From Kondoa subrosea (Eukaryota): 64,000 nt of DNA. The translations under genes and the position numbers were made by a program. The stretch covers positions 2,353,129-2,417,128 of the forward strand of contig BCIN01000001.1 of NCBI GenBank assembly GCA_039545335.1, written 5' to 3'. Each line of letters opens with the position of its first letter. Position 1 is the first letter of the stretch. The notes beneath the pieces were generated by a model. It had not been told where the DNA came from, made no database searches, and saw only the letters and a list, made by a program, of their open reading frames with translations. Shown here piece after piece: positions 1,849 through 31,610 of this stretch.

Positions 1849-2606
1849 TTTGTCAAAGCACTGAGCACAGCATGACAGCTGTCACAGCGAGAGGGAGACG
1901 GTAAGATAACAGGAATCTGACGAAGTCCAGCGAGCCAGAGATATAGACCTTCTGAGGAGTAGAAACGTTTCTAATCTAGACCTTGCCAGTGACAGAAGCC
2001 GAATCTCTTGCAGGATTCTCTGACCAGGATGGTGAGCTTGAAAAGATTATGCACGACCAAGGAGTGGTCAGGGCAACTAACAAAGGGCGGATCACTGGTT
2101 CTCGGCATACAGCGAAGTTGCTCGACCTCTGGATGCGTCTATGTGATCTGTGTCATCAATCATGGTGATTTAAAGGCAGCCTCGGCATCTGCTATGAAAA
2201 CGAAACTCCGTCTCTGGGATTTGGGCCTCAAGAAAATGAACTATCTTCCCGCTGCCTGCGGACTGCCTACAGTCTCTCAACGATCAATAGTCTCACGATA
2301 GTACTGTGCTAATCTACTTCTGCCAAAAACGCGTGTTTGGAGATGGCTTCCTACTTTTGCCAAATGCAGATCTCGAAACTTGCCTCCTCCTTTTATGCTC
2401 TAGATGACCTTCAAGCAGCTCTCAGTCATCATATACATCTCTTTTGGTGTTTCCAGCCTGCCTTTTCTTCATTCTGACTTGATTCCATCTCTTGTTCCGA
2501 CCTTCATTTCGACTTCAAAGTATTTCTTGCTTCACTCGCCTGGCTGTACGTTATCTCAGATCATCATCATCATAAGTAGTCCCTCTACTATTACCCAAGA
2601 GTCAAG

Positions 2607-3884
2607 ATGCGCCCTTCAATCCTTCTCAGCGTTCTCGCTTTCGCCTTTGGTCCAGTTTTGGCTTCCATTAACAATGTAGCGGAAGCGAACTCTCTCAAAG
2701 CGAGTGCTATAGCTATCCCTGATGGATCTTATACCTTGATCAATGTTCGTACTGGTATGGCAATCACTCAAACTCGTGATAGCAATGGCAACCATATCTT
2801 CCCGGGGAAAGGTGCTGGAACGTTGATGAATCTGACAGTATGTTATTTCTGATCTGCTCTCATGGACCCTTTGACATTCCGCCTTGTATAGCAAAATGGC
2901 GGCGATTCGAACTACATGATTCTCCGCACCCCAACCAGTAAGAAATGTATCAGTGCTCAATGTAGGTCTTCTTTTTGATTGAAGTTATGAGATCGTACTA
3001 ATTGTATGGCGGCAGGGGATGTTGACTACGATCAAGGATCAGATTGGGTAAGTTTGGGTGTCGTTTGGCTACGCATACCTGACCGTCATCGATACAGGCT
3101 GGAGCCTTATACGTGAGCATCTCATATTTGAGTTTGATCCTACTGATCCTACTAATGCAATCGAGATAGGCATGTCAAGTTGATCCGATTCCTGCAAGTT
3201 CTACTTTGAACCCGGACAAGCAGTCCGTCATTCTTTACATGGATTTGTATGGGATACTGATCAAGGTCAACAGATATTGGCTATTCGTGCCAGCTCAAGG
3301 TGTCTCAAACGCATACTAGTTAGTAGGGAACTGTCTTCGTACTTCATGCTTTAATCTGGGTGCCTTCCTAGCATCATACCCATCGACCACATCACCGATA
3401 TGGCTACTCGAGGTCTCCAATCTTGCACTCGAAATACTTATTCTTACAAATCTATTTGCCTCGATGTGTTGGACTACAGCAATTCCAATTTCATGTGGTA
3501 TGTAGTACCGGCTGGTGGCTCAGTTCCTGTTGCTGGGACAAGTAAGCTTCTTTATGCTCTTGCTTTGTGTAAGCGCTTTTCTGATGTCCGTTTGATCAAG
3601 CTACAACCCAAGCCCCGAATAATACGCCTACGCAAGTAACACAAGATCCATTACCAACGTACAACGATGCAACTGTGTTAAAAAGTACCGTTACTGTCAC
3701 AAACATTCAGACACAAACACAAACAGTCACTGTGACTTCAAGCGCAACAGCAACCCTCATCAGGTACAGCAGGAATTGTCCTGTACCTCGCGTGAAGATC
3801 GTCGATCTTTCAGCGAATGACCAAGGGTTGAGTGCTCCAGGCACAAGTTGGTTTGGCAAATGGGCTGGAGCAGCTTGGAAGTGA
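2607..3884 (+). CDS. Secreted ricin B lectin (beta-trefoil)-like protein with Thr-rich tail; multi-exon
   Basis: Signal peptide MRPSILLSVLAFAFGPVLAS; 'IPDGSYTLINVRTG', 'KKCISAQW', 'YWLFVP', 'ICLDV...MWYVVP' resemble beta-trefoil repeats; T-rich C-terminus. Confidence 0.6.
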
Positions 3885-4034
3885 TTTCTTGATCAGATGA
3901 TCTCGGATTGTGGCATAACATGTATAATAGCATCAGAAATGTAAATGTGGCATCGCTGTTCGCAATGGATACAAACAGACTGACTAAGTACTCCTTCTCG
4001 AAATTATATGACGCTTGTTTTTTCACCCACAGCC

Positions 4035-4497
4035 ATGCCCAAACAGTCTCGTATGCTTGCAACATCAATGCAATGTTGGCGCTGACATTCTGTGATAGGC
4101 GCTGAACGTCGCGAAGTCCCGCGAGCAAAGCCTATTCTGCCAGAACAGGCTGAAGATGAATCAAATCTGGCAATCACCGCTGCGGATCAGAATAGCTTTG
4201 CTGTGAAGTCGACATCTCAGCCTACTGGCACAGCTGGTTCAAAGAAGAAGAAGAAACGCTCAAGTGTTTCCAGCAAAGCAGCGGAAAAGAGCAAAACTAA
4301 AGTGAGTACTCCAACTGCATTTTGATGATATCGCTTATTTGTGGTGTTGCAAGGGTGCTGAACTAGCTTCGAAACTGGATGCGAAGAAAGCACGGATAGA
4401 CAGTAAGCCTTTTCCATCGAGGCAGAAGCCAGCAGACGTTGACTTGTAAGCAGATCGGAAGGAGAAGAGAAACGCTGCGAAGAAGATCTGGGAGTGA
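4035..4497 (+). CDS. Small Lys-rich hypothetical protein (spliced)
   Basis: ATG 4035 MPKQS, GT-AG introns, exon 'AERREVPRAKP...GSKKKKKRSS...', last exon 'RKEKRNAAKKIWE*'. No homology recognised. Confidence 0.4.
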
Positions 4498-4994
4498 AGA
4501 GATTCCCTGCTGTCCTTTTATGGATCCCCTGCATGTTATACCGTCGGATCATTCTTCCTGCTAGGCCTCCTCATTATTACCTTACCCCTTCTTTTCTCTC
4601 TTTACTGCACTCTTCCAGACATAGCTTCTGCACTTCATCAGGTTATCTAGCTTTGGAGTTGGCTTCAGTCCTCAGCAGTAAGCGGGGCAAATATAGCAGC
4701 TCTCAAAGTCAGTTGTTCTGAACAGCGGTCTCCGTGATTTGCACGACACTGAGTCGTTCTTCTTTCGCATGCTTGTCATTATACAGCAGCCAAAGGTATG
4801 CTGAGCCCAAAAAGCTTCCCTTTGTCTGCGCTGAGCCAAAACAACTCTCGTCGAAGAAGTATACTATGAGTAAATCAAATTAATGAAATCGATAGGAGCA
4901 ATCCAGCAGCACTTGTGTAGAGACCATTAGAATTCTGTATAGTGTCCAGAGTCGCGAATTCGGCAACACTATTCTTTCTTTCCCAATATCAACG

Positions 4995-6467
4995 ATGTCT
5001 GTCCATCTTCAGCCTGATAACGCTCTTGGCTTCCACAGTAGGTCATATACCTGAATCTCATCACAGCCCTAACATTAGTACGCGCGTTCAGGGCCTCTGA
5101 CGACTACCGTCAAGCGAACTTTGACCGTCTCGAATTCCAATACCTCGCCTGTCATTTTCAAGGTCAAGACTACAGCACCAAAGCAATACTGTGTTAGACC
5201 AAATTCAGGTATGTCTGTGCAACAAAGAGTTGGAGACCTGTTCGAGAGCTAAACATGGATATCGATTTATAGGCCGTATTGAGCCTGGAGAAACGGTTGA
5301 AGTTCAAGTTCTGCTTCAGCCTATGAGAGAAGATCCTCCTGCTGCTTTCAAATGCAAGGACAAATTCCTCGTTCAATCGGCTTTGGTCCAGGCGGATCGC
5401 GAGAGTCTTGGGCTGCCCGAGATGGTGCGTCCCTTGCTTGATTCGTAGGCTCTATCCGGGTTTAACATTCAGGATATAGTGGTCAGCCATTGAGAAAGAA
5501 GACAAGAGTGCTATTCACGAGCAGAAGATTCGATGTGCTTTCCTACCTCCCGTTGATGAATCTGGCAACGATGTTGGACAGGCGAATTCTTCAGCATTCC
5601 TGCATGCGGATAATGCTGGACCGGATAGCACTTTCGCCAATGCGGAAACCTCATCTGATGGCAGAGTAAGCCTTTGTTTGTTGCTGTAGAACGTCATTGA
5701 ATTGGCTTTATACAGGACTCACGATTCGAAACTGTACGAGGTTCAGGTGTAGCCGAAACTTTCACCGCGCCAGCTCGATCTTCCATTCTTCCTTCCTCTT
5801 ATACAAATGGTCAAGACAGCATGCCTGCTCAGCCTTCTATCAATTTACCATCCACTTCCAATGCCCCTCTAGCTTCCCAAAACTCTACACTAGACGCTTC
5901 TCCCGCCTCTCGCGAGATTAAACCTATTACTCAAATTGCTCAAGAAGCTTCCACCAAACCTGTAATGGAAACTTTGAAAGAAGCTGGAAACACGATCGCT
6001 GCTCAAGCCAATAATGCAGGAGCTGCAATTGCACCAGTAGCCGCATCGGCTGGTTCCACTATTGCTGCTACTGCTACATCTGCCAGCTCCACCATAGCAG
6101 AGAAGACCGGCCTTTCCAATGGCTATAACACCAGCTCAACTTTGTCCACACCGCAAGGAGATGATGGTCCAATAGTTGCTGCTTTGAGAAAACAGTTATC
6201 GGCTGTAGAGAGGGAAAACGAATCGTTGAAAGCTCAGCTAAAGGAAGCCTCCGTATTAAGGCAAAGAAATGTTGGATCAGCAGCTCCAGCAAGTTCTTCA
6301 AGAGCAAACGTCGCTTCCCTACCTCATCAAGTACAAACGGACGGTGTACCAGTACAGGTCGTGGCTGGATTATGCTTCGGAATCTTTGTTTTCACTTGGT
6401 CAGTTTTGTCCTTAATTTGAAAGACTCCAGACAGCTGAAGTTTTTCGTGAACAGGCTCTGCTTCTAA
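4995..6467 (+). CDS. SCS2: VAMP-associated protein (MSP domain, coiled coil, C-terminal TM anchor)
   Basis: MSP signature 'FKVKTTAPKQYCVRPNSG' and 'CKDKFLVQS'; coiled coil; tail anchor 'GVPVQVVAGLCFGIFVFTWLCF*'. Confidence 0.93.
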
Positions 6468-7490
6468 TTGATCAATTGATCAAGACATCTCTTCCCTCTA
6501 CACATATATAGGACTCTGTTTGTGTGCCGCTGTTTGTATCTCAAGCGGTAGAAAGTAACGACTATTAGCGAAGCATAAGCACTGCTTGGCAAAATTACAT
6601 ATCAATAATTACGAGCAGAAGCATCTCCTCATGATTGGCCCTCAAGTCAATTCTGATATTTTGTTTTGCTATTCATCTCAATTACTTTTCCCCTTGCAGA
6701 CATTACTGTTTGCTCTTCTCTCTTACCGCTTTCCTTTGTCCTGCTTTTTAGCTATTAAGCTTCAGCCAGGCAGATCTGCTTCTGATCATTTCGCAGCCGC
6801 TTCCCTGGGCATATCTCGTCTAACTCGCTTGATGTAAGCGAACGCGGCTCTTCCCTGAGACAGGTCTCACATCTAGAAGCGGGCTGCAATGTGGAACTGA
6901 TCTGTGCCAAGCCCTACAGAGATTGTCGCATGTGTGAATGTCTTTCATATTATAACTTTATTGTTTTACAGCGAGAGACACGGGAACTTTGGCAGATGAT
7001 CTCAAAGATCATGAGGGAATCATGCGTAGCATAGCAATTGCACGCGCGAGATGTAGCTGGAGCGATTTTACACAGCAGTAGAGGCACGCAGTAGAGGCAC
7101 GCCACAAAGCGTGTCACACGTTCTTGCTGAAGTTGAATACTTCAGACCCGCTCGTCCATAACATTTACAACAGCTTTGCGCTACTGCATGCAACTGCCAT
7201 CTCGCAAGCACCTACCTCGATGACGCATCGCTACGAGCTCATGTAAAGCTGGACGTTCCCTTCTTTTGTTTCAATATTTGTGAATCTCGTTTCTTTTGCT
7301 TTGCCCCCTCTCGCTCTGCCTACCTTTGCTCGACACTTCCTGGCTCAAATCAGACTCTGTTGCATGTCCCTTAATGCATCAGCAGCCCTTCCCTGCCCTG
7401 CATACGCGCGGCAGAATTGTGCACGAAACATGTCTCTCCGAATTAAGGCAAATCGCGGTCCGCTTGCTTTACCCACTTTTCTTTTCCGTC

Positions 7491-8165
7491 NNNNNNNNNN
7501 NNNNNNNNNNNNNNNNNNNNNNNNNNNNNNNNNNNNNNNNNNNNNNNNNNNNNNNNNNNNNNNNNNNNNNNNNNNNNNNNNNNNNNNNNNNNNNNNNNNN
7601 NNNNNNNNNNNNNNNNNNNNNNNNNNNNNNNNNNNNNNNNNNNNNNNNNNNNNNNNNNNNNNNNNNNNNNNNNNNNNNNNNNNNNNNNNNNNNNNNNNNN
7701 NNNNNNNNNNNNNNNNNNNNNNNNNNNNNNNNNNNNNNNNNNNNNNNNNNNNNNNNNNNNNNNNNNNNNNNNNNNNNNNNNNNNNNNNNNNNNNNNNNNN
7801 NNNNNNNNNNNNNNNNNNNNNNNNNNNNNNNNNNNNNNNNNNNNNNNNNNNNNNNNNNNNNNNNNNNNNNNNNNNNNNNNNNNNNNNNNNNNNNNNNNNN
7901 NNNNNNNNNNNNNNNNNNNNNNNNNNNNNNNNNNNNNNNNNNNNNNNNNNNNNNNNNNNNNNNNNNNNNNNNNNNNNNNNNNNNNNNNNNNNNNNNNNNN
8001 NNNNNNNNNNNNNNNNNNNNNNNNNNNNNNNNNNNNNNNNNNNNNNNNNNNNNNNNNNNNNNNNNNNNNNNNNNNNNNNNNNNNNNNNNNNNNNNNNNNN
8101 NNNNNNNNNNNNNNNNNNNNNNNNNNNNNNNNNNNNNNNNNNNNNNNNNNNNNNNNNNNNNNNNN
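7491..8165. other. Assembly gap (675 N)
   Basis: N run; its flanks map to 20751 and 20120 in the right arm, so about 630 bp is expected here. Confidence 0.99.
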
Positions 8166-8406
8166 TAGCTGATCGTGAGTTGTCTTCCCAGCTTCTATTA
8201 GATGTTTGCTGACTCGTCCTTTTGTCTCAGTCTGCCCAACTTGCGGAGGCAATGGACAGTCTGGTATCGATTTGAGTGAAGGTGCCTTCATGGCCCTTGG
8301 CAAGAAAGAGCAAGGTGTTCTTCCCCTTGAGTGGTCTGTGAGTCCGATTCATCTGCTAGCGAAGTCGACACAGCATGCTTACTTTCCGACGCAGTTCATC
8401 AACTAA
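8166..8406 (+). CDS. DPBB (RlpA/expansin/loosenin-like) secreted protein, left copy; only the 3' exons are visible
   Basis: 'VAD|LCPTCGGNGQSGIDLSEGAFMALGKKEQGVLPLEWS|FIN*', the same peptide as the copy at 19880-20507; the 5' part falls in the gap. Confidence 0.8.
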
Positions 8407-8866
8407 ACCCATCACTCTCAAATCTCCTTCACTCACTCACTTCTTCTTCTTTTGGGCTATTTTGGGGTCTTTCAAGCATTGATTGCGCATGGAAACGAAA
8501 AGTTGAACTTTGTCGTTTTGTATTCGGTGGAAGAAGTAGAGTCAAAAGGGTGAACCGCGTATGGCAACTCATCGCATTGTAAAATAGACGCTCATTTAGA
8601 TCATCATGTATCACTTTCATCAAAAAAACTTGAACGTTGACTTCATTGAAGTCCGCGAGCCCTTGTTCTTGTCGATCACCACTGACGCGCTTCAAATCTC
8701 GTCGAGCAGTAGCAGAGTCTAGCTGCATTGTGGACGACGCTGCTATCGTCTTTCTCGCAAAATGCTCAGCCTCTGCTGAACGCGCTTGTAGCTTGTTTTG
8801 ACGATTTACGATTCGGATCCATTGCTAGGCTTGCTGGGTCTCGAGACTTGTTCGCCTACACTAGAT

Positions 8867-8983
8867 ATGACTTCGCAACCTTTTGCTTTGAAAACATCGG
8901 CCAAGGGCAAGAGAGATAGGACTGCTCCTCAGCCTATTGCCTATCGGCATTTGTTGTCGTCAAATTCGCTCAATATTGCCTGA
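8867..8983 (+). pseudogene. Truncated duplicate of RAD30 exon 1
   Basis: MTSQPFALKTSAKGKRDRTAPQPIAYRHLLSSNSLNIA* versus the RAD30 N-terminus MTSQPSTFGTSAKGKRDRMAPQPITYRHLLSTNSLNA; homology stops at ~8974. Confidence 0.85.
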
Positions 8984-9270
8984 GGAAGGAAATCCGCGCG
9001 AGCGTTCTCTTGCATCTTATGCTGCGGCTGGACGGATTATGCCTCACCGCTTGCAATCTAAAGCGCTGGACACCGAGAGCACAGCTTCTTTCAACCAGCT
9101 TTCGCGGCAAATATCAGTGAAATGACCATATCTGGCAATCGTCTGGACTAGAAGATGTTTAAGCTATGCTGCGGTTTCTGCTCCCATTGCGCATCGGAAC
9201 GCTATAAAGATGCAAGACTGACTTCTTCCTCTTCCTGTATTTGTCGAATCATACACAATTTTCTGACATC

Positions 9271-9857
9271 ATGCTCGTTTCTACTGTTTTGACTGCTTTG
9301 GCAACTATCATTTTCTTAGCGTCAGCTGCGCCAGTTAATCGTCGATTTCACGGACCAGCCACATGTGAGCCTGTCTTCCTCGGGGCATGAATATAAACTG
9401 ACCTGACGATTCCAAGACTATTATCAGGATGATCGCCCGGGTGCATGTGGGAAGTACAATGATGATAAAGCTCATATTGTAGCGCTTAACCCAACCGAAT
9501 ATGCTGATGGTGCTCGTTGTGGTCAATTTGTTGTCCTCACCATTTCAGAAGGCAAGACCATTACAGCTACTGTAGCTGATCGTGAGTACTTTGTCAGACG
9601 CATCATTTCTCATCTGACGCGTCTTACAGTCTGTCCTACCTGTGAGGGGCCTGGACAATCGAGAATCGATCTCAGTGAAGCTGCCTTTGTGGCTCTCGGG
9701 GTCCAGGAAATGGGTATGATTCAGCTTGACTGGCATGTGAGTCTCATTCCTTGTGTCTTTCTTCTTCTGCATCTGAGCATCTTCTACAAAGATTGAAGTG
9801 TCCTAGCTGGTGGTATCAAGTCCAACAGGCCAAAAGACGAGAAGAAGAGCTAGATGA
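9271..9857 (+). CDS. DPBB (RlpA/expansin-like) secreted protein, diverged paralog
   Basis: Spliced MLVSTVLTALATIIFLASAAPVNRRFHGPATYYYQDDRPGACGKYNDDKAHIVALN...RCG...ATVADLCPTC...IDLSEAAF; DPBB motifs GACG, VAD-CP, DLS-AF. Confidence 0.85.
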
Positions 9858-9966
9858 GCTTGTAGGGTGACGCATGTATTCTATAGACAGAATGAATCGT
9901 CTAGATCACCTTTGCTGTCGCGAGTCACCTATGACAGCCATAATCAATGAAGCTTGTCCTGATGCT

Positions 9967-12900
9967 ATGACTTCGCCTTATGCAAATCAGCCGCCAATCC
10001 AGGGCATTTCTCTGTTGAAATCATCCACGAAAAGCAAGAAGCATACAAGCCCAAGGCGACACAATGCCTTCGAAGAAATCAATGCCGGGGAATTTGAAGA
10101 GTTTGTTGACGATGTCACAACTCGCATCAAGCTTGCCTTAGGATTACAGCAACCTGTAGTCGAGACTGTTGCGGCTACCGAGGAAGCAGTCGAAGCAAGG
10201 GAGCCAGATGTCTTCGAGCAAGAAACCGAAGCGAATGTGTCAATGTTTGTCGCGCGCTCGCCATGCGCATACTCGGCTAATACAGATCCACACACAGTGA
10301 TGGGTTGTATCCTGATCTATCACACCTTACAGCCGATGCCGAGGAGACGATGCAAGATCAAGACATCTCTGTTCTCGCATCTAGGCAGAGTGAACAAGCT
10401 CAACCTCTCATTACCGCTAACGATACTATCTTGCCATCAATTACAAACGCAACTCAAGGGCAAGGGCAAGAGATCCAGCTCATTGGCTCATCGTCTGAAT
10501 CTGAGTCTGGGTCTGACAACGAGGGAGAGGAAGACGACGACGACGAAGGGGACACTATCGAAGAAATCATTAGCGATCAGGAGATAGCTACTTACGGGCC
10601 TGGAGATGGATCTACAAGAGAATCAGAGCAAGAAGAGCCAGCATCCGATAGCAATGAAGGTTCACAGCAAATTCAGCAAGAAGGTGCTTCAGACGGGGAG
10701 GAGCAGAACAGTTCAGAGCAGGAATTGGATGTCCGTGCTGCTCTTGACGAAGAAGATGAAGAAGAGGAAGAATTGCAAGATGATGATGAATTGCGAAGCG
10801 ACGATATCCTCTTACCTTCTATGCCTGATCAAATACCTTCGCTCGAGCCGAAAGGACCCTCGCCATTCAAGAGGATCAACAAAGATTCTCGTCAATCAAC
10901 TCTCTTTGATCCTTTGCCGAACGGAAGAACCGATGCTGTGGAACGCATCAAATCCTCCTTAGATCAAGAAGCGCTCGATGCTTTGTATGGCGAAGATGAA
11001 CCGGAGGAAATGGAAGATGACCAAGCGAATTCAGATGAAGACGACGACGACGAATCGTACTGGGAACGCATTCCAGCGGCTTTGAAAGGCAAAGGTCGAG
11101 CAGCTGAAATAGAGCAAATTGACGAAGATGCCTACTTTGACGAAGAAGAGCCTTCGCCTGATGTTGTGCAGAGTAGAAGAAGCTCTCAAACCAGCGACGA
11201 TTATCGTATACAACTTCAAAGCTTAGTCGAGCCAGAGCAAGAACATTTCAACGAATCTATGATGTCTTTTGATGGTAGCGATGGCATAATGCCTCCTGAA
11301 CGAGCAGACGTTGGTCATCAGCAAGATTGTGAAGATGAAAGCGACATTTTGATTGATCACAATGTGTCATCAGCGGATAACAACGATACAGACACAGCAC
11401 CGCTGAGTACGCTTGATGGCTAGATATTGATAGCAAGCTCATGAATCGTTAGATGCCGCGCCGGAAATCGAAGAAGGACTCGATATTCATTCACCGAGTA
11501 CTCCAGCAGAGCAGGCGCAATCCGCTGTACCGAATTTTGCTTCTTTCCTGAATGACGACTTTGCGACTGATGATCTGTCTTTTCAAGATATCAGCTTGCC
11601 AAGTCAGGCTATAGAAAGTTCCATCCGTGATGCTCGAGAAGCTCCTCTGCCGATCAGTGCAACCGAATTAGTATCAGCTCCCGAGGATTTACTCGATTTA
11701 CTCGATGAAAATCGAGCACAACCTCTGGATTTGACTGGGCAAGATGATTTCTTGGCAGATCATGACATTAATCTGCTATCCGGCCCTCCTTCCGCTGTCT
11801 TCTCCAAAGCTCCGTCTCCTTCTGCAGCGCTTCCGGATCTCATATCCGAAAACCCGCTTGATCTGGGAGGACAAGAAGAGCTTGTTCACCAAGATGATTT
11901 GATAATGGACGAAATGATGGAAACCTATGCTGATGGCCTGCCAGAAGAAGCGGAAGAAGCTAAGGCTGTGGATGTTTCGGATGCTCCTCATTTGCTTGCG
12001 CAAATTGCTAAAGAAATGGAGCAAGCCGAACACTCTTCCGCACCCTCCGATTCGACCCAATCCCTCAGCGTTCTTCATTCTGACGGGTCAGAGAATTCCG
12101 TACAGACAGAGCAGCCTACCAGTCCAATTCGTAATCAGGAATCTGTCGAGCCTGCGGACCCAGCACAAGAACTGAACCAAGATATATCCATAGAAGAATT
12201 GCCTGTGGAAGAAATTACAGGACTTCCTCAAGAAGACGATGCTTTCTCTACACATACAAGTGACGCCGAGATTTCTGAGCCTGACGAAGTCATTCCCGCA
12301 GAGGAACTGGGATTAGACGTGGAAGAGGTTAGGTTGCTTTCAATAGAAGACAAGAAGTGACCTGATATCTGAAGCAGGTATCGGACTCTGAAGCTGCGAC
12401 GGTAATTCAGAATGCTTCTCCCCTACGACATAATGTGATTCGACCTGGCGTGTGGAATCCTGATACACCTGTACGATTCGGCGGAACAAGCTTGGAAGCA
12501 GCATTGCGAGAAGCTAAGCATGATCCGGAGCGGGGTATCAAAATCAGAAATACCTTGGGTGATACGCAACTAGAAGATAGCGGCTACGGCCGAAGTCAAC
12601 TTTTCAATCCTGTCCTGGAAGAAGGGATGGTCGATAATCTCGAAAGACAGGCTGTTCTGAAAGAAGCAGAGCTAAAGGCCAAGCTTGCGAAACGGCGCGT
12701 AAGTTGTATTATGTTAGGCTTCAAGGCAAGCTAATATGCTTCCAGGTTTCGTTGCGGTTAGACGAAGCTCCTCTTTCAGCTCACGCCACCGAAGATTTGG
12801 ATGGTAGTCCAATCGTGTCAAATATCAGTGAAGATCTAGCAATATCAGAAGCTGATGCTGTCTTGGAGCCTGTGTCCAGTACAAAAGTAGCACAGCCCGC

Positions 12901-14347
12901 TATGGAACAAAATATGAACCTGGATAGCGAAGAACAGCAAACAGAACAGCTACCGACCGAACCGACCCACTTTACTACGCCTCTTCAGTTTGGCTCAGAG
13001 CCGATGTTAGCCTCCGAAGATGTTCTTCCTTTCGAAGAAGAATCCAAGGAACCAACGAATCCAGTAGATGCTGAGTTGACTACATCAACACGCGAAAGTC
13101 ATGTAGAAGATGTCGCGGGAGAACTTGAGACTGGCAAACGAGAAGTCGCCGAATCTTCGCCATCTACTAGCTCTGCAGACGGTTCATCAGATAAGATGAT
13201 GGTCAATACAGTTGCGTCGGAAACCATTAAGGAGCAAGAGCCAGTTGCTGCGGCCCCATCGAACAAGTTTGAAATGGCCGCCGAGATACCGCAAGAAATC
13301 GAAAATGCAACACCAGCTCCACAAACTGGCAGTATTCCTCAGGTGGAGCGCAGGCAGAATATTGTTGGCGAAGAACCTGACTACTCCTCCGATGAAGAAG
13401 AGATCGAAAACCTTCTTTCGCCAAAAAAGCCTACGATAGCAACACGATCTCGAGAAAGTACTCCGCCCCAGGAAAGACGTCGCTCTGGCCGACTTCATCC
13501 TCCTTCGCCAGCGAAAAGGCAATCGCTTTCGCCTATGGTCCAAGAAGAGGAATTTGATCCGCTTCAACTATTGCCTTCCACAACCAAGAAACCTAAATTA
13601 GCACGAGGAAGCCCAAAGACGCCGTCTGCTGCCACATTTGGTAATGGCAAATCTAGCAGCATTAAACGAAATTCTCTGCAAGCTACCGAAGCATCACAGG
13701 CTGGGTCACCTTCTGCTCCAGCGCGTTCGACAAAGCGAATCCATCGACACGGTCGTAACAGAGTTCCTGTACACCCGGAAATGCACGCTGCGTCTCAAGA
13801 TCCAGCTGTTGGAAGTAGTCCGCCAACAGGAGCAGTCACACGAAGCCATTGTACTTATCACAAATTCTCGATGCCCGGTGCAGACGGCAAGACGTATATC
13901 CTCTTGCTTCCTCAGTGCTCGACGGCTGGAAAAGAAGAAGAAATGGCAAGAGCGCAGGTCAAGGATTGTGGAAATGCTTCGGAAGTCGACGATCAACAAG
14001 CCGTACCTTTATCGCGACTTTCGGAACATCAAGATTTTGGCGATCGTATAGACGCAAAAGCGCTGACAGCCTTGACCAGAATCGTTGGTCCTGATCTCGT
14101 CCACGAATGCGAAGTGGTTGCCCCTCTTACGAGTCCTCGGCCTCAATCGCCCCAAGCTTCTAGTCCAGTGATGTCAGAAGACGTCAATATGGACGCTCAA
14201 AGCAGTTCAGCACCGGTTCCATTGGCAGCAGAAGACTCTCTGCCACTCAAGAGGAAGCGAGATGACGAAGAGCCACCGGAAGATGTTGCACCAAAGAAGA
14301 GATCGATGTTCTCTTCCATGCGCAAGATGTTCAGCAGAAATAAGTAG
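9967..14347 (+). CDS. Large acidic low-complexity protein, probably nuclear, function unknown
   Basis: Consecutive ORFs ending at 10587, 11423, 12360, 12734 and 14347 joined by short introns; D/E-rich; C-terminal 'LKRKRDD...PKKR' looks like a bipartite NLS. Confidence 0.75.
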
Positions 14348-14537
14348 TAAGCGAGCATTCAGGTGTATACATAGTCACGCAGGTAGTAATTCATACAATG
14401 TCAAATATATGTCTTCTGTAGACCACGACGCAAGTCTGGATAGATACCTAGACCTTGATACCCTGGATCTGCGATAACCTGCCTTAATTCTGGAGCGCTG
14501 TGCATCTACGTGATTCTGATACCGTAGCCAACAAATC

Positions 14538-16810
14538 ATGTCATTCTTGAATCCTCTTACCCTGACGATCGCTTTCTTTGCGTATCTCCTGTATCGGTAC
14601 TCGCTATACTATCGCATCGTTAAACGGGCTGGGTACGCTCCTGGCCGAAGAACATGGATTCGCTCGAGTACCATTCTGTCTGAGACTCTTCCAAAGATTA
14701 AGACATTCAATATCAATCTTCCGAGTTATAATTTGTATCAGCGACCTTTCGAAGCAGCGTAAGCACGACCTACTGGACTCTAATTGCCTCTGAAGCTCAT
14801 ATCTGTGATCTATGAAGAAAGGAGTTTGGCGCAACGATAACAACTTCCATCAGTTACTTGCAATCGTCGAGGATCGTCTACTATGTATCAGATGTAGAAG
14901 CTGTCCAGATTCTTACTACATCGAAGAGCGTTGGAAAACCTTTAGCTGTATGTCAAGAGCATCTTCAGTAGCAACTCCGTTCCCTTATGTCTATGTTTGT
15001 TGACTGTCAGATGTACAAAGTATTATCGGTGCGGTGAGACTTGGCGCTACACGTCCGTGCTCAACAAAATTTATAGTTCTTTGGCATCAATATCGTCATT
15101 GTAGACGGTGACCTGCATCGGCGTCATCGTAAAGTTGTTGCACCTGCATTTTCGGAAGCGAAGTAGGTGCTGAGAGTCTGAAGCCTACTCTTGACTGACC
15201 AGGTTCCTAAGCAACGCCTATGTTTGGGATGTAACGCTACAAACGTGCGATCAGTGGTTCGAGGATATAGACAAGCGAATAGTCGCGGGCGACAAAGAAT
15301 CGACCGTAGAGCCAGATGTAGTCTTATCTACTATGCGAGCAGCCTTGATGGTAAGTCGAACGACACAGAAACCGGCGTCACCTGACGCCAGTGAATGCCC
15401 AGATTATATCGGCTGCAGCCTTCGGTATGCAGATACCATGGGACGACTCTGCGCTTTCTCCACCTAAAGGTCACAAACTCCTCTTTCGCCAGGCATTACA
15501 AGATGTGCTGCACTACACAATCGCTCGGGTGTTGGCACCAAGGGTCAGTGTATCAAGTGTCTTGGCTGCGGTAGCTGCTGAGAATCTATCATAGTGGCTA
15601 TACAAGATTCCCCGACTTCCTAAGCAGCTACATGTCACATTAGCCAATACTGAAACCGCTTATACCGAGCTGGAGCAATATCTTTCAGAATTAGTGGAAG
15701 AACGGCAGCGCGATCAGAAGACAGACTCCGTCAACCGAAAGGATTTGCTGAGTTTGCTTCTGAGCGGTGCAGCTCAGACAAATGGTCTGACGACCGAAGA
15801 GGTGAAGGGCAATATCTACATCTTCCTTTTGGCAGGACACGAGACAACAGTCTGTCGAAGTCTTCAAAGTGTTACCGCTTGTCTGAGTGAACAATTAACA
15901 GGCGCACACGCTCGCTTTCGCTTTCGCCTTATTATCTCTCTATCCTGAAGAGCAAGAGAAGATCTATAAGGAAAGCTTGGAAGTATTTCCGGCGGATGCT
16001 GAAGCACCATCGTACTCGGCTTTCAATCGCTTAACTTGCGCTTTGGCATGCTTTCATGAGACCTTGCGTCTGTTCCCGCCTGTGTATGTACTCTACCTAC
16101 CGTGCGAGCTTGGGCTGAGAGGCATTCTAGCCCTCACATACCTAAACGTGTGTTCTCTGCTCCCTGAACAGATTCTGGCTGAATATGACATTGCAGATGC
16201 GAACGAAGATATGATCTTACCTGCAAGACATGTCAGTTCCGAAGGGAAAGTAGGCGACCGCTTTCAGATGGCTGTTCCGGAAGGTAGCGAAGTCATGATT
16301 GATGCGAGATCGCTGCATCACAATCGTATGTCATCTTATTTTCCAAATACATTTGTTGATCATCATAAATCAGCTGCTGTTTGGGGAGAAGACTGCAAAG
16401 ACTTCAAGCCCGAGCGCTTCATCGATACTGATGACTATCATTGGAACAGAGACGGCTTCTTGCCCTTCTCTGCTGGAACTCGCAGCTGTGTTGGTCAGCG
16501 ATTCGCCATCGGTAAGTCTGTCCGCTGAGTATCTATACTCGCGATTCTAAATTCTGAGCAGTGGAAGGAGCCTGCATCTTAGCCAAAGTCTGCAGAAAGT
16601 ACAAGCTAGCACTTCCTGACGAGGACATGAAAGCCTATCGCGCCGGGGAAGAGACTTTCGACGCGCTAAAGGCAAGGACGCTGCGTATGAAGCAGCAGAT
16701 CACTTTGTGCGTTCAAGGAAACTGTTAGAGGCCGCTAAGCTCATTGCATTTGTCTACATTCTAGAACTCCGCTGTATAAAGGCTTAAAGTTCACCAGAAG
16801 AGTGGAGTGA
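14538..16810 (+). CDS. Cytochrome P450
   Basis: N-terminal TM segment; I-helix 'FLLAGHETT', 'ETLR', 'PERF', heme motif 'FSAGTRSCVGQRFA'. Confidence 0.93.
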
Positions 16811-16899
16811 ACTTATATGTAACATGTTTGTGAAGCATGTGAAGATGACAGTGTGATATAATGCATGATATAGACATATACACAAGCACAATGATAATC

Positions 16900-19422
16900 T
16901 CATTTCTTTCCGAAGAAGCTTGCTAATCCCTTTGTTTTCGGTTTGGCTTGTTCTTTGGGCTTGCTCTGCGTCCGCTCTTTCGGCTTATCGACTTTCTTGT
17001 TGCTAGTCTTGCTGCTTTTGACGACAGATCCTCCTACTTTTACCTTCTGATCCTGCAGAAGATCGCGAGCGAAGTGATAATCTGCATGCTCCTGTTGTAG
17101 CAGCTTCTTTGCATCCGATTTGAGCATCTTCACTTCCGTTGAATCGCTAGGATATGTGATCACCGTCTTGAGTACTTTGTGACACTTGTCACAAGTGTAC
17201 TTGACCGTGGATTTGGCTTCTGACGGTTCTGTAGGGCTGTCGGATCGCTTGATCTTTTTGACCAAGCCAATGCCTTCATTGTCGCTAAGAATTGCAGTAG
17301 GTGAGTCTTGTGCCGAGAGTTTCCTCTTCATAGGTGGACTGCCACCAGCAAAGAAACCCTCGATCCCTCGTTGACCACTTTCTTGCCTTTCTAAGTTTTG
17401 GAATTGAAGCGAAAGATTTGTACAAGCACCGAGCTCGACGTTCTGGCCTGCTTTTCGCTCGCTGATGAAGTCGCGGAGTATCTTCTCTCCCAACTTGTAT
17501 ATGTATTCGGGAGTGAGATTCGAAGAGAAGGGAAAAGGTGCTTGACGAGTTTTCGTTACGTAGTTTTCGCTTCGGTGATGCAGAGCGAGAGTTTTTGGCC
17601 ACAAGCCCGGTGACAGCTCTCGGGACTCCGTCAAGCGATGACAAAGTTCGGCAGCCATCATTGTCAGCCAATGACGCTAAAGAGAGTGAGCATCCGAGCA
17701 GGCTATCAGAGCGAAGCAGGCTTACTGCTTCCTCCCAAGTAGTGATAGCTGGCTTGAAGTTCTTCGACGACACCATAGACTTGACCTGAGTTTTGTTTTC
17801 GACTAGAAGGCGAAGTCAGATTCTGTCTATAAACAGAGGACGGACCAACCCTCAGCGAGATCAATGCCTCGGATTATTTCCCAGACCCAAAGACCAGCCT
17901 CTTCGCCGTACTTTTGCTGCATCTCATCAAGTGACACAGTCCTGCTTTCAGGGTCAGCCAAATTGGGCTATAAATGGCAACACGTACCATAGATCGCCGA
18001 CTGTTGCAGCGTCGTACTCCGCTGCTATCGACTGTCCAAGTTTACCGCCTAAGAAACGGATCTTTTGAAATGACAAAGGTCGAAGAAAGCCCGCAACAGC
18101 GCCAGGTCGAAGGACAGTCTGAATTGACTAGCATTAGCATTGTCTTGCGTCGGATCTGAAACTGTACTCGCCTGTGCGTCGGCTACAGCCGCGTATAAGC
18201 TTCACTTCGATGCGAAAGAAAAGCTGTCACGAGGACGTACGCTTGTTGTAACCAGCGCATAGCTTGGCTAACATCTATACAGAGGCCACATTGGTAAAGT
18301 GACGTATAAGAGTCAGAGAGAAGTAGTCACCTTATTCTTCGCTATTCCTGCGCTGCAGGTATAACCGAGACGCTCTTTGACGGCATCACGACATTTATGC
18401 ATGAGTTCCGCGCCAATAGCAATAGCTACATCAGACCAGGTAGGGTGGTCTTCTTCCTCTTCAACTGCTTTCCCTTTGCCCTTCGCATCAGGTGCTTCTT
18501 TGGCTTGAGTTGGAGCAATAGGTATGAGATGGCCTAGACCTTCAAAGTCTATTCGAGCAGGTGCTGGAGGTAGAGGCGTATCAAGACCTAGAGTTGAATC
18601 TTCCGGCACTGCAGCAAGTTGAGGATATCGTTCCAGCATAAGTTGTCGAACAGGTACAGTGAAGTCGAGATAAGCTTCATCAATAGATGCCTTTTCTGCA
18701 GGACGATGTGAGCTCAGGAAATGTGGACGACCAGCGATACTGCTTACGAATGGTAGGACACATCTCGCCAAAGATCTTGAGAATCTTAAGACTCTCTCGT
18801 CGGTAGGGATCCAGCGAGACCTGAAGAAAAGCTTAGTTCCCACAGTCACAATATCAAGAATAGCATTGAGCACTTTGTGTGTCTCGTGTCTGGCATCAGG
18901 ATGATATCCAGGTTCCGTATCTCCTTCGCGATAAGTAGCAACATGCACACATACAACTGGGTGCCGATTGAGACTTCCAACTATGTTACTGAAGGGACGA
19001 CGACGCACTGTCAGGACACTTCTTGCGAGCCTGTCATAGAATTCAGTATAGGTATATCAGATCAAGGACACGTACATACTTCGTCCGCGGATTCGTGCCT
19101 ACTGATACCAAAGACTCGCGCTGGATAGTTGATCGCAATCAAGCCTTGCCATTGCTGGACCGCACAAGGGATGTTCTTGTCCAAACCCAAGCGAACCATT
19201 TCAAACTGAGCATAGGCAGCATCGATGTCACACAGGGCTATCACGCGCAAAGGATTACTGAGCAGCGTGAAGTCAGATCGATGTTGCTAGCGGTCTGTAA
19301 GGAGCTTGCCTAGCATTGAGCGAATTTGTTGATAACAAATGCCGATAGGTGATAGGCTGAGGAGCCATCCTATCTCTCTTGCCCTTGGCCGATGTCCCAA
19401 AAGTAGAAGGTTGCGAAGTCAT
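16900..19422 (-). CDS. RAD30: DNA polymerase eta (Y family)
   Basis: 'VIALCDIDAAYAQFE', 'QQWQGLIAINYPAR', 'EKASIDEAYLD', 'CSAGIAKNKMLAKL'; UBZ 'CDKC...EHADYHFARDL'; PIP-like 'KGLASFF'. Confidence 0.95.
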
Positions 19423-19879
19423 ATCTAGTGTAGGCGAACAAGTCTCGAGACCCAGCAAGCCTAGCAATGAATCCGAATTGTCAAAACAAGCGCGTTCAGC
19501 AGAGGCTGAGCATTTTGCGAGAAAGACGATGGCAGCGTCGTTCGCAATGCAGCTAGACTCTGCTTCTGCTTGACGAGAGAAGCGCGTCACTGATGATCGA
19601 CAAGAACAACTTAGGGACTTAAGGGCTCGCAAACTTCAAATGGAGTCAAGGCTCAAAGTCTTTCCGATGAAAGTGATACATGATGGTCTAAATGAGCGTC
19701 TATTTTACAATGCGATGAGTTGCTATACGCGGTTCACCCTTTTGACTCTACTTCTTCCACCGAATACAAAACGACAAAGTTCAACTTTTCGTTTCCATGC
19801 GCAATCAATGCTTGAAAGACCCCAGAATAGCCCAAAAGAAGAAGAAGAAGTGAGTGAAGGAGATTTGAGAGTGATGGGT

Positions 19880-20507
19880 TTAGTTGATGAACTGCGTCGG
19901 AAAGTAAGCATGCTGTGTCGACTTCGCTAGCAGATGAATCGGACTCACAGACCACTCAAGGGGAAGAACACCTTGCTCTTTCTTGCCAAGGGCCATGAAG
20001 GCACCTTCACTCAAATCGATACCAGATTGTCCGTTGCCTCCGCAGGTTGGGCAAACTGAGACAAAAGGACGAGTCAGCAAACATCTAACCGAAGCTAGGA
20101 AGACAACTCACGATCAGCTACTTTAGCCTTGATGGTCTTTCCATTGGCCTTGTTCTTGATGGTAAGCATGCGACCGCAGTTCTTGCCTCCGTTGTACTGA
20201 GACTTGTTGATGGCGACACTTTGGAAATGTAAAATGAGCTGGAGTCGAGGAATCCGAGGTGAGCAGACATACATGTAAGCGCTGTCCTTGTTCCAGTTTC
20301 CGCAAGCACCAGGATTGCCGTTTTGGAAGAAGTCTTCGAAAAAAGAGGGATCAGCTTTCAAGTCGAAAGTTGCGATGAGAAAGAAGACTGACATGTACCA
20401 GGACCGCTAGCACGCTTCTCGATGCTTGAAGTTTCGCCTTCAATAGGNGCGGCAGAGACAGAGAGAGCGAGTACAAAGGCAGCGAAGAGTGATTTGGCAG
20501 AGAACAT
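19880..20507 (-). CDS. DPBB (RlpA/expansin/loosenin-like) secreted protein, right copy
   Basis: MFSAKSLFAAFVLALSVSA signal peptide, Kex2-like 'IEKR', 'FFQNGNPGACGNWNKDS', 'VAINKSQYNGGKNCGR', 'AKVADLCPTC', 'IDLSEGAF'. Confidence 0.9.
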
Positions 20508-20632
20508 GTTTGAAGAAGTATTCAAGTGATGAAAACTTTGGGTGGATAAAGCGAGTGAAGAAGTAAAGGTAGTAGCGAAAAGAGCTTGTGAGGAAAAGAA
20601 GAAGAAGAAGACATTGCAAAAAACCAAAAGCT

Positions 20633-20641
20633 CTTATATAC
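20633..20641 (-). promoter_or_regulatory. Putative TATA box of the DPBB gene
   Basis: Minus-strand 'gtatataag' about 130 bp upstream of ATG 20507, followed by a pyrimidine-rich leader. Confidence 0.5.
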
Positions 20642-21764
20642 AAGGGTGAAAAAGCTTGAGCCTTTCCGGTCCCTTACGCGAACAACTCCACTGTGATACG
20701 TGCACACTTTCACACAGATTGCTGATTCTCGAGACATGCACAATTTTCGTGACGGAAAAGAAAAGTGGGTAAAGCAAGCGGACCGCGATTTGCCTTAATT
20801 CGGAGAGACATGTTTCGTGCACAATTCTGCCGCGCGTATGCAGGGCAGGGAAGGGCTGCTGATGCATTAAGGGACATGCAACAGAGTCTGATTTGAGCCA
20901 GGAAGTGTCGAGCAAAGGTAGGCAGAGCGAGAGGGAGCAAAGCAAAAGAAACGAGATTCACAAATATTGAAACAAAAGAAGGGAACGTCCAGCTTTACAT
21001 GAGCTCGTAGCGATGCGTCATCGAGGTAGGTGCTTGCGAGATGGCAGTTGCATGCAGTAGCGCAAAGCTGTTGTAAATGTTATGGACGAGCGGGTCTGAA
21101 GTATTCAACTTCAGCAAGAACGTGTGACACGCTTTGTGGCGTGCCTCTACTGCGTGCCTCTACTGCTGTGTAAAATCGCTCCAGCTACATCTCGCGCGTG
21201 CAATTGCTATGCTACGCATGATTCCCTCATGATCTTTGAGATCATCTGCCAAAGTTCCCGTGTCTCTCGCTGTAAAACAATAAAGTTATAATATGAAAGA
21301 CATTCACACATGCGACAATCTCTGTAGGGCTTGGCACAGATCAGTTCCACATTGCAGCCCGCTTCTAGATGTGAGACCTGTCTCAGGGAAGAGCCGCGTT
21401 CGCTTACATCAAGCGAGTTAGACGAGATATGCCCAGGGAAGCGGCTGCGAAATGATCAGAAGCAGATCTGCCTGGCTGAAGCTTAATAGCTAAAAAGCAG
21501 GACAAAGGAAAGCGGTAAGAGAGAGGAGCAAACAGTAATGTCTGCAAGGGGAAAAGTAATTGAGATGAATAGCAAAAAAAATATCAGAATTGACTTGAGG
21601 GCCAATCATGAGGAGATGCTTCTGCTCGTAATTATTGATATGTAGTTTTGCCAAGCAGTGCTTATGCTTCGCTAATAGTCGTTACTTTCTACCGCTTGAG
21701 ATACAAACAGCGGCGCACAAACAGAGTCCTATATATGTGTAGAGGAAAGAGATGTCTTAATCAA

Positions 21765-21917
21765 TTAGAAGCAGAGCCTGTTGACGAGTAACATCAGCTG
21801 TCTGGAGTCTAGAGTCTTTCAAATTCAGGACAAAACTGACCAAGTGAAAACGAAGATTCCGAAGCATAATCCAGCAACGACCTGTACTGGTACACCGTCC
21901 GTTTGTACTTGATGAGG
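21765..21917 (-). pseudogene. Duplicate of the SCS2 3' end (TM anchor, last intron, stop codon)
   Basis: Encodes PHQVQTDGVPVQVVAGLCFGIFVFTW|LCF* with no upstream SCS2 sequence. Confidence 0.85.
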
Positions 21918-22254
21918 CAGGAAAGGATTTGCCTGAGCCGGATCTTGTGCGGCTCAAGTTGACCATTGAGCGGCAGGATGATCACACGAGTGCGAGAATG
22001 CTTACGCTTCAAAAATTGTGTATGACAGGAGTGGGGACGGGAACCTGGAGACCTAGTGTGATATGTAGGCGAGAAGGAGAGAAGCTAGCTCAATCACAAG
22101 GAAAAGGTAAGCTCGACTAGTACGCGTCTGCCGCGCATCACATAGGAGTCAGACAGCAAGAGAAAAATAGCATTCGCTACCACGGTGTGATGATCTGCGC
22201 GCACACCACTGCCGCATAGACAGCGCTCAGATACCAAGGAAGTGAAATGCACAT

Positions 22255-23204
22255 TTACAGGAACAGACTGCCTACAGTGGCCAAACCAGTGAGGCCAATT
22301 ACAACATAACCTAGGCAACTATATCAGATTGAGCGTGGGTAAAAGCGAGATAGCACTAACCCGCAGTGTAAGCAGTCTTCAGCTCGAGTACTGTCCGATG
22401 AAAGGCCTGTGATCAGCATTTGAAGTCATGGTGGGACATGAAACTTACAGTAGCCCATGTCCCAACTCAACTGATGGACACTGTTAGTCACAGTGCAGAG
22501 ACTCGGTAGACTGCCAACTTACATGTCTCAAACCGTTGAATGTGTGGAACCAGAATGGCGCAGCCAGAATTGCCTTAGCACTGTATTTGAACCTAACGAC
22601 GGCGGATAGTCAGACTATAATATTCGTTAGCATGGAAAGGACGCTGACCAGCCAGGTAAACTGGAGTAGACACTGATCAGATCGGCACTGTCGAATCCAG
22701 CACCAAAGGCGGGTGCAACGAGGTAGCTGCATGCGAAAGCGTAAAAACCTGATGTCCGATAATGTTGAGGGCGAGCAGGTGAACAGGTCTCGAGCGATTA
22801 CTTACCGACACTCAATCCTGTTCCGGTCACTCGATTGGCGATGGAGCTGAGCCATGTCAATTGTGGTTCATCTGTATGCTTGGTATGAGCTAATGCAAGG
22901 TATCCTGGGATGGTGAGAGACTGACAGATAGTAAAATGAGGGGAAGAAGGCCTCAATTTGCGCTGAGCTGCTAGAAGATCAAGGTTTTGCTGTGGAGTCA
23001 AGCTCTGAGTTGCTACAGCTCTGTTCATCCATAGTAATCAGACGATATTCAAGAATGGTGAGCCAATAAGATCGACCTGATTTGTTGAGATTTGGATGCC
23101 AAAGCCATTTCTGTCAATGCCAGTCAGCTGATTCTCCCAGAATTGCGCCAAAGAGGCTCACGTCTGCGCAAGGCAGGTGCGAATGTCCTTGCTACAGTCG
23201 ACAT
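22255..23204 (-). CDS. SDH3: Succinate dehydrogenase cytochrome b560 subunit
   Basis: Mitochondrial presequence; 'RKLRPSSPHFTIYEPQLTWLSSIANRVTG', 'FHTFNGLRHLSWDMG'. Confidence 0.92.
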
Positions 23205-24002
23205 GGTGTTTGCGAAATAACCCGACAAGCTTTCTTCTCGCTGCAATGACTTGCTCTGAGTACTCCTGTGTTTGTTCAGGCTGTAGTCTGATCTCATATG
23301 CCTCATTTATTGCTCTCTACTGCTGCCTCTTTGTGCAGGAATCGTTTTTCGTCCTTCCGCTATGCTTGACCTGCTGAAGTCTCGTTCATTTGTCTGTAAT
23401 TGCTTCCTGAAAGCTCTTTCATTGGTGTTTGTCAGAGCTGTCGTATTCTCCCGTCCCCTGTTAGGGGCAAAAGGTATCAAGAACGACTCAAAACACAGGA
23501 AAAGCATCCTGAGCGGCGATACTGTAGCTGTGCTGTACATCGCTTCGAGATTTCTTATGCTTCACATTGTTCCTCTGTCTGTCATTGCTCTGTGTGGAGT
23601 CTGAGCGAGATCGCGCAGTGGTCATCGCATATTGACAATCCTGCTCCAACTGTTACATCTCAAAAGGCGTCTCAGTACATCGTCTGATCGATCAAAGCAC
23701 CACAGTAGTCGGCAGCTTGAATGGCTTGATGATTGATCAAATAGTAATGCACTGATGGTACGCAATGACGAGTCTGACAGACAGGATGCTACAGCGAATC
23801 AAGCTTTCTGATTATGCGTTTTTAGAACATACACGTATAAATCATAGTCTGCATAGAAGCCAGTATGGTACTCAACTTATTTACATGTACCAGCTGCCCT
23901 CCTGCGCGCATATGGTACGGCCAATACAAGGCTAATCTAATTTAACGAACTTCCCCAGGTCTTGCGGTTATTTGGAACGCTTCCTGTAGTTGCACAAGCA
24001 CA

Positions 24003-26331: not shown

Positions 26332-26471
26332 AAAACAAAGGGGAAATGATGAAATTGTGGGCTCAAATTGATGCAACATGTATTATTCTACAAAGATTGT
26401 ATGGCGAAATACAGAGGGTACAACTACAACGGATTTGACATGATTGTGCTACTTACTCTTCCTCTTAATAC

Positions 26472-29400: not shown

Positions 29401-30400
29401 ACACATTGACAAACCTTCTGGCAGCCAGGTAGGGATTTCATAATCCATCTGCTGAATCTTTGTTTTCATGACTTCTTCCTCGTCATCGTCAAACGGTAAG
29501 CTGCCGGTAAGAAGAGCATAGAGAATGACGCCTATAGACCAGACGTCGACCTCTGTATTAGATCCAAGCACGTCAACAAATTACTTTGCAAACTGCAACT
29601 GCAGACGACCGACCTTCGCCCATATATTTCCTACCAGCCAGCATCTCGGGACTAGCATATCCAGTAGTACCACAATACGTCTCCATCATTTTGCTCTTCT
29701 CGAACTCTCTCCCAAACCCAAAATCCGCAATCTTGACATTACATTTCTCGTCAAGCAGAACGTTTTCCAACTTGAGATCCCGATGAACAACTCCTTGAGC
29801 ATGAACGTAACCCAATCCTAAGCATAATTGACCAAAGACTCGTCTTGCTTCGAATTCGTGTAATCTTCCTTGTTCGACCAAATAATCGAAGAGTTCACCA
29901 CCGGCACACAGTTCAAAGACTAGCCAAATACTCGTTTCTGTTGCAATAATTTCATAGAGTTGAACTACATTTGGGTGATGCAATTGGCGGTGATGATGGA
30001 TCTCCCTTGTAAGTAAAGGTGGAGTTGCAGAACGAGGGATTTGTTTTATTGCGCATCGAGTAGAAGTCAATCTATTGAGCGCTAGTCGAACGCATCCAAA
30101 TGATCCTGCAAGCATGACATTCTATTTGAGCTTCCGAATCCCATTACTTCAGCGCTGGAATAGCAATTGCTTACCTTCGCCAATGATTCTACCGAGAGTA
30201 TAGTTACCCACTACTTTAATTTGAGTGGAGTAAAGCTCTTTGCCCAGTTCGACATAAGCATTAGAAAGCTTTAATGGATGCAAGTCAGCAATTCAGGATT
30301 AAGGGCAGATTGATGACCGATGGACGCGTACTAAGTTCCGAGCACCTGATTGCTTTGAATATGAGTCTCCTGCTCGATGACCGCGAGCCCATGCTGCCAT
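26472..30400 (-). CDS. CAMK-like (MARK/Ppk16-like) Ser/Thr kinase with long S-rich tail
   Basis: '[15 protein letters not shown]', 'HRDLKLEN', 'DFGF', '[10 protein letters not shown]', 'DVWSIG'; long disordered C-terminus. Confidence 0.9.
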
Positions 30401-31455: not shown

Positions 31456-31610
31456 GCGTACTTGTCATCAGATGACATACTTTTAAGGGAGAGCAGAATA
31501 TCTGAAAGCATTGTATATATAGCAACAACGAGCAGAGAAAGGAACAACATCTTGGTGTTTCTTAGTAAGTCTCGAATATTTTTTGTAACAATTCAAGCAA
31601 ACGTTTTATT

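Follow-up and report, generated by a model that had tools for sequence, protein, structure and literature searches.

The 64,000-nt stretch of Kondoa subrosea DNA considered here, referred to as the window (NCBI GenBank assembly GCA_039545335.1, contig BCIN01000001.1, positions 2,353,129 to 2,417,128 of the forward strand), contains two 2.6-kb arms that form an inverted repeat around a unique interior. The locus lies at 2.36 Mb on a 4.23-Mb contig, in gene-dense surroundings. Comparison of the window with itself (blastn) aligns the outer part of the arms (6314-7490 with 21925-20751) at 97.4% identity over 1184 columns and the inner part (8166-8974 with 20120-19315) at 91.0% over 824 columns, both with E = 0, and nine of the 12 inverted pairs detected in the window are fragments of these arms. 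A preliminary description, made from the sequence alone, had placed reverse-complementary arms at 6322-8974 and 19315-21917 around an interior of about 10.3 kb. These coordinates hold to within a few bases and the interior measures 10,340 nt, whereas the arms proved to be a mosaic of identity, with 675 N inside the left one. When the right arm is used as query, the 18.9-Mb genome yields five matches, namely the arm itself, two pieces of the left arm and two stretches of 59-68 nt in a distant DPBB paralog, and no third copy. The presence of only two copies indicates a duplication of unique DNA.

Genes of the arms and the interior

The gene content of each arm is collinear with an SCS2-DPBB-RAD30 arrangement. 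An arm begins at its outer end with the final 150 nt of SCS2/VAP, followed by about 1.2 kb of intergenic DNA and a five-exon DPBB gene, and at its inner end it carries the RAD30 promoter together with the first 36 codons of that gene. SCS2 crosses into the left arm, and RAD30 begins in the right arm and extends beyond it into the interior. A duplication formed at an inversion is supported by the gene truncations at both arm boundaries. The features of the arms are the following:

5125..6467, + strand: SCS2/VAP, mapped from its MSP-domain exon through the stop; the final 150 nt fall in the left arm (PF00635, homologs, spliced tail)
6314..8974, + strand: left arm, with SCS2 tail, intergenic DNA, DPBB gene and a copy of the RAD30 promoter and exon 1 (blastn self-match)
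6717..7490, + strand: homogenised core, left copy, 1 difference (at 7305) in 774 nt
7491..8165, no strand: 675 N inside the left arm, in place of exons 1-3 and the promoter end of the left DPBB copy
8166..8406, + strand: left copy of the DPBB gene, visible 3' part (self-match, PF03330)
8867..8974, + strand: RAD30 exon 1, a truncated copy that stays in frame for 36 codons, with a stop two codons past the arm end (arm comparison)
16900..19422, − strand: RAD30 (DNA polymerase eta), its promoter and first 36 codons in the right arm (Pfam, homologs)
19315..21925, − strand: right arm (blastn self-match, contigs)
19880..20507, − strand: right copy of the DPBB (RlpA-like, loosenin-like) gene, five-exon model, 133 aa, hydrophobic N-terminus (splice signals; PF03330 on exon 4, below the curated cut-off)
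20629..21524, − strand: homogenised core, right copy, spanning roughly 0.9 kb ahead of the DPBB start (20629-20750 from contig evidence alone)
21765..21925, − strand: promoterless copy of the SCS2 tail with a diverged intron (self-match, spliced tail)

The DPBB gene is the only gene that both arms carry in full. Its assignment to the family draws on weak exon-level matches to PF03330 (E 1e-4 to 5e-3), and its predicted product is a secreted, loosenin-like DPBB protein, with which a role in the cell wall fits. Both copies look intact wherever they can be read, and all seven readable coding differences between them (four in the assembly, three from contigs of the sequencing runs described below) are synonymous, an outcome with a chance of 3e-5 for random changes and of 4e-4 if only transitions are considered. 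This suggests that selection probably keeps both copies, and such selection would be the likeliest reason why the repeat survives. A single N in the right arm, at 20448, occupies a third codon position of the gene.

The other two gene pieces are incomplete on one side. The left arm's RAD30 exon 1 differs from the right one at 13 of 108 nt and in seven residues; it retains the first ATG and the reading frame, and a second ATG is missing from it. The first ATG is probably the real start, because the KGK and ITYRH motifs follow it in homologs (12 of the 120 listed were viewed). RAD30 is at most 46% identical to named proteins, and its first intron apparently opens with GC rather than GT at 19309, as read by eye. 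The best named matches of an SCS2 exon are from Sporidiobolales (75-78%), in keeping with a basidiomycete. The spliced SCS2 tail gives the same residues from both arms. The tail copy shows only two synonymous changes in about 90 coding nt, next to five substitutions and a 7-nt indel in the intron, a pattern that is weak on its own.

Between and beside the arms lie further genes:

9271..9796, + strand: older DPBB paralog, the interior gene next to the left arm (43-71% identity with the arm gene in exon pieces; ends read by eye)
9874..14347, + strand: large acidic protein without a Pfam family (Pfam scan)
14538..16779, + strand: cytochrome P450 (PF00067; ends read by eye)
22426..23037, − strand: SDH3, right flank, central exons (PF01127 on two of four pieces, best E 4.4e-4, below cut-off)

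Pfam and homologs thus bear out the DPBB paralog, acidic protein, P450 and RAD30 that the preliminary description had named for the interior, and SCS2 and SDH3 as the flanks. The older DPBB paralog stands at the far end of the interior and shares 68% DNA identity with the arm gene over 126 nt. In the order before an inversion, these two genes would already have been inverted paralogs flanking the block, which hints at an earlier duplication at the same place. The P450 intron at 14948-15010 recurs at 12 other genomic positions with 81-89% identity and at a further one with 79%. Nine of these were viewed (eight of the 12 and the 79% match); all nine start at a GT donor within unrelated flanks, and seven end in a branch-site-like motif plus YAG. 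This family looks to us like introner-like, recently spread spliceosomal introns. Apart from it and one 60-nt match, no dispersed repeats were found when 1-19000 (a non-exhaustive search) and 21926-41900 were compared with the genome.

Two arm copies and a homogenised core

The 675-N stretch in the left arm is most likely a scaffold gap in a collapsed repeat. It faces 630 nt in the right arm, and a quarter of the left arm is absent from the assembly. Evidence on the reality of both copies comes from the contigs of two public runs (X1 and X2), compared over window positions 8975-23500. Both runs derive from one sample that is probably the source of the assembly, and they represent a different assembly method rather than independent DNA. 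The left inner junction, where 8975 joins 19315 on opposite strands, is present in the contigs of both runs, and in X1 the loose contig end at 21925 continues into the letters of the SCS2 body. The collapsed arm contig has a depth of 96.7 against 52-56 on unique contigs in X1, and of 263 against 141-145 in X2, or about 1.8-fold, contig depth being a rough measure. Where the arms differ, distinct left-type and right-type contigs occur, each at single depth. Together, the two junctions and the depth indicate that the genome holds two arm copies.

The arms differ by 66 events, which are very unevenly spread: the outer 1177 nt hold 18 (17 of these in the first 403 nt) and the inner 809 nt hold 48. 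Per 100 nt, the counts run 5, 8, 2, 1, 1, 0, 0, 0, 0, 1, 0, 0 through the outer part and 7, 0, 3, 1, 12, 8, 4, 13 through the inner part. The gene-containing repeat is therefore homogenised only in part, with one difference in 774 nt against 17 in the adjoining 403 nt, and at the rate of those 403 nt the probability of one difference or none in 774 nt is 1e-13. Neither run lists an alternative letter between 20629 and 21524, which extends the core to about 0.9 kb at 99.9% identity. Collapsed contigs give one allele per site, and two known differences are hidden in this way and a few more may be; such hidden differences cannot reach the approximately 35 expected without exchange. The near-identity of the core points to a recent exchange between the arms, which is a precondition for crossover. 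We infer gene conversion as the homogenising mechanism, and the core may have been overwritten at about a hundredth of the duplication's age.

The layout recurs elsewhere on the contig. Three more inverted duplications were tested and all three were confirmed (524 nt at 92.6%, 936 nt at 89.4% and 524 nt at 95.6% identity), each enclosing 3.2-3.3 kb, and two of them have identical cores of 311 and 269 nt. No sequence is shared between the window and these three loci. A layout that recurs around unrelated genes with no common site suggests a mutational process of the lineage and not a dedicated device.

Origin of the repeat and competing explanations

The best explanation, with a probability of roughly 0.68, is that the arms are an old segmental duplication in inverted orientation that marks both ends of a small inversion; selection on the DPBB gene would have kept it, and gene conversion would have homogenised it in patches. 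Judging from what the arms contain, SCS2, DPBB and RAD30 would ancestrally have stood in a row. A single event, for instance a staggered break or a replication template switch, may then have placed a reversed copy of the 2.6-kb block 10 kb away and turned the interior around; alternatively, the copy may have come first and a later crossover inverted the interior, and the two routes are not separable here. That RAD30 points back towards SCS2 implies that the block was inverted once, provided that the assembly phasing is right. After the event, the truncated RAD30 head drifted to 12% divergence, most of the changes altering residues, and the protein of both DPBB copies stayed the same at all seven readable coding differences. 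More recently, non-allelic homologous recombination probably overwrote the core and a shorter tract at the DPBB 3' end. A small share of such exchanges would end in crossover (about 4% of conversions, a value cited in PMC9731477) and flip the interior with no expected effect on genes. The outcome would be rare changes of orientation between strains, not switching within a culture.

An identical 9-mer occurs at 8976-8984 and at 21929-21937, just past the left arm on its inner side and just past the right arm on its outer side, respectively. Before the inversion, the pair would have made a short hairpin at the breakpoint. Such sharing arose in 509 of 200,000 random pairs of 25-mers; the match was noticed post hoc, and the arm boundary is fuzzy.

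Several points weigh against this account of the repeat. The tally of synonymous DPBB differences is incomplete, as eight of the 11 differences on one left-type contig stand outside the count; most of the eight should fall in intron 2 and at least one in DPBB exon 2, at a third codon position by geometry. The ancestral order has no outgroup confirmation: the locus tags of SCS2 and RAD30 are neighbours in none of 13 distant Microbotryomycetes, which are too far away to inform, and a metagenome scan with a RAD30 exon gave two confirmed loci among 373 candidates (2.4 and 3.8 kb, 38-53% identity). The three comparison loci were chosen non-randomly, and no genome-wide rate follows from them. Finally, the inversion itself depends on assembly phasing through the gap and through identical runs of 588 and about 300 nt.

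This last point leads to an alternative in which the arms still convert but there was never any inversion. The true order SCS2-DPBB-RAD30 would be intact, and a reversed 2.6-kb copy would have been inserted beside the older DPBB paralog. The left arm is interrupted by the gap, the identical runs are longer than short reads, the contigs collapse the core and none of those listed crosses a whole arm, and the orientation of such regions is missed by short-read assemblies, as described for Saccharomyces in PMC9731477. On the other side, the right arm is assembled gap-free, the gap size of 675 lies near the expected 630 and suggests that the assembler had spanning pairs, and a staggered-break inversion accounts for both truncated gene ends in one step. 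Mis-phasing is considered unlikely.

If the inverted duplication is accepted, its capacity to flip has to be considered. The preliminary description had held that a crossover would invert the interior without breaking a gene, and this stands: the SCS2 tail, the RAD30 exon 1 frame and, where readable, both DPBB copies are preserved. A crossover in the core would carry RAD30 along with its own promoter, and the DNA it exchanges would all lie upstream of the DPBB starts, at a distance of over 1 kb; about 0.9 kb of near-identical upstream DNA is common to both copies. As far as can be read from the sequence, a flip would be harmless and silent, with no obvious promoter changed. The interior could thus flip rarely, as a capacity rather than a demonstrated event.

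A more active form of this idea is that recombination in the core is common and that both orientations coexist appreciably in cultures or among close strains, with no regulation. The identity of the core, the distance of only 10 kb between the arms and the intact genes after a crossover are in its favour. Against it stands the divergence of the arms outside the core (4-12%), which indicates that exchange has been too rare to keep them uniform; the 2-kb repeat of Ogataea, by contrast, is identical (PMC5720833). In the experiments described in PMC9731477, not one flip was seen at even the 4-kb Saccharomyces repeat among about 53,800 mitoses and 950 meioses. Frequent flipping is accordingly doubtful, to much the same degree as mis-phasing. 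Clearly less probable is the broader proposal that the genome carries many partly homogenised invertible cassettes, and that this one, with neither a mating-type (MAT) gene nor a recombinase, flips in populations so that its orientation varies the output of the three DPBB genes.

Still further from the evidence is a programmed, condition-dependent switch, in which inversion would alter expression of an interior gene or of one DPBB copy and cause phase variation at the cell surface. In its favour, the gene fragments with which the arms end recall SLA2' and a1' of the Ogataea repeat (PMC5720833), the locus brings together three DPBB genes, and a STE3-like receptor and a G-protein beta subunit gene lie 54 kb and 37 kb away, respectively. 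The STE3-like gene in question is the nearest of four such pheromone-receptor loci in one apparently haploid genome (C1:2428923-2429234, C1:2745580, C4:51017 and C4:1439612); it lies beyond the right arm, among neighbours that read by eye as housekeeping-like open reading frames, and the G-beta gene occupies 59176-59793 of the window. The kinases of the window look, in our estimation, like an N-terminal-domain kinase and a CDK, not like Ste20 or Ste11.

These hints are outweighed by several observations. Every gene keeps its own promoter after a core crossover, the interior holds no MAT gene, the only Homeobox_KN match lies on another contig, and a similar layout surrounds unrelated genes elsewhere in the genome. 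No transposon-rich or telomeric silencing region was found near the arms, centromeres not being mapped. Nothing in the interior suggests a link to a mating-type locus, and no inverted repeats surround other DPBB paralogs or the STE3 loci (six of six loci checked). A dedicated switch locus, the strongest reading of the preliminary description, is thus unlikely.

That description's observation that no mating-type, recombinase or transposase gene is present is borne out by Pfam, which detects no such domain, nor a reverse transcriptase, in the 106 window open reading frames (17 + 89, of which 11 and 16 have a family); the scans show housekeeping genes. PF00589 tyrosine recombinases have no match genome-wide, the one recombinase family searched at that scale. 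The absence of a recombinase says little either way, because, according to PMC5720833, Ogataea switching requires RAD51 and no recombinase was found there. A site-specific recombinase element or transposon was rejected as a candidate, given the absence of recombinase and transposase domains from the window and of sequence shared with the three other inverted-repeat loci. A Komagataella-type inverted-repeat centromere (10.1101/056382) was rejected on account of an interior full of genes.

That one arm is an artefact or a second haplotype, a possibility which the preliminary description had itself raised as mis-assembly, is suggested by the gap and the N within the repeat and by reads that probably stem from the assembly's own sample, but this is largely refuted already and scarcely credible, given both unique junctions, left and right types at single depth, the 1.8-fold collapsed contig, unique flanks that all have one depth and arms that differ in 66 events.

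Taken singly, the locus is a clear case of a process already described, in which a duplicate arises at an inversion, selection on one gene retains it and conversion renews it. It gains its value from its company, as at least four such repeats occur on one contig. If long reads from several strains show these blocks in both orientations, the lineage would offer a ready system for studying how small inversions arise and recur in basidiomycete yeasts, and for testing whether inversion breakpoints routinely yield gene duplicates.

Comparison with known systems

The duplicated gene itself has recognisable relatives. Loosenin-like DPBB proteins bind chitin and weaken cellulose networks (PMC9888185). 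Like them, the arm gene is predicted to encode a small, secreted, single-domain basidiomycete DPBB protein with several paralogs, one that probably binds and loosens cell-wall polysaccharides. As for the arrangement, literature searches with limited coverage of subscription journals found no description of an invertible, non-MAT nuclear locus from any basidiomycete yeast; PMC5389616 deals with mitochondrial repeats only.

One comparable layout is the FF1 type of mating-type switching, known from Ogataea polymorpha and others, in which a 2-3 kb inverted repeat with truncated genes at its ends surrounds a block of 10-20 kb (PMC5720833, PMC6692504). The Kondoa locus likewise has one inverted repeat around an invertible block, and it would likewise use ordinary homologous recombination. 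Unlike FF1 repeats, its arms are not identical (91-97% outside the 0.9-kb core), and no MAT genes stand at the block ends, with all STE3 and Homeobox_KN matches outside the window. As to a centromere or telomere that could silence one end, the locus lies in the middle of its contig, with no transposon domain in the 106 open reading frames, centromere positions being unmapped.

A second parallel comes from Drosophila, where inverted duplications of unique sequence, about 88% identical on average, occur at 17 of 29 inversions, often with only one breakpoint duplicated, and staggered breaks have been proposed as their cause (Ranz et al. 2007, PMC1885836). As in those cases, unique sequence with truncated genes is found reversed at both ends of a block, and 88% is close to the identity at the inner edge of the Kondoa arms. 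The duplicated DNA is non-transposon, unique sequence present in two copies only, and it comprises the SCS2 tail, the DPBB gene and the RAD30 head. In the Drosophila cases as described in PMC1885836, the duplications reach no more than about 1.9 kb, and the inversions were proven with outgroups. The Kondoa case is without an outgroup, and its copy includes an entire conserved gene and a core that was converted only recently.

The third parallel is the flip/flop (FF) region on Saccharomyces chromosome XIV, a non-MAT region of 24 kb that re-inverts because its 4-kb repeats are homogenised (Salzberg et al. 2022, PMC9731477). A non-MAT invertible region is thus not new in fungi, and within S. cerevisiae the same source describes one common inversion polymorphism. 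Both loci hold ordinary non-MAT genes between conversion-homogenised, gene-containing inverted repeats with whole duplicated genes in the arms, need no recombinase and show no obvious effect of orientation. In Saccharomyces, the 4.2-kb arms are near-identical throughout, the region is conserved in eight species and lies near a centromere, and both orientations are documented (PMC9731477). In contrast, the Kondoa arms measure 2.6 kb and are identical only in the core, and the locus is seen in one genome and in one orientation. Overall, the locus works like Saccharomyces FF and the staggered-break duplications of Drosophila, and it does not belong to the FF1 switching systems.

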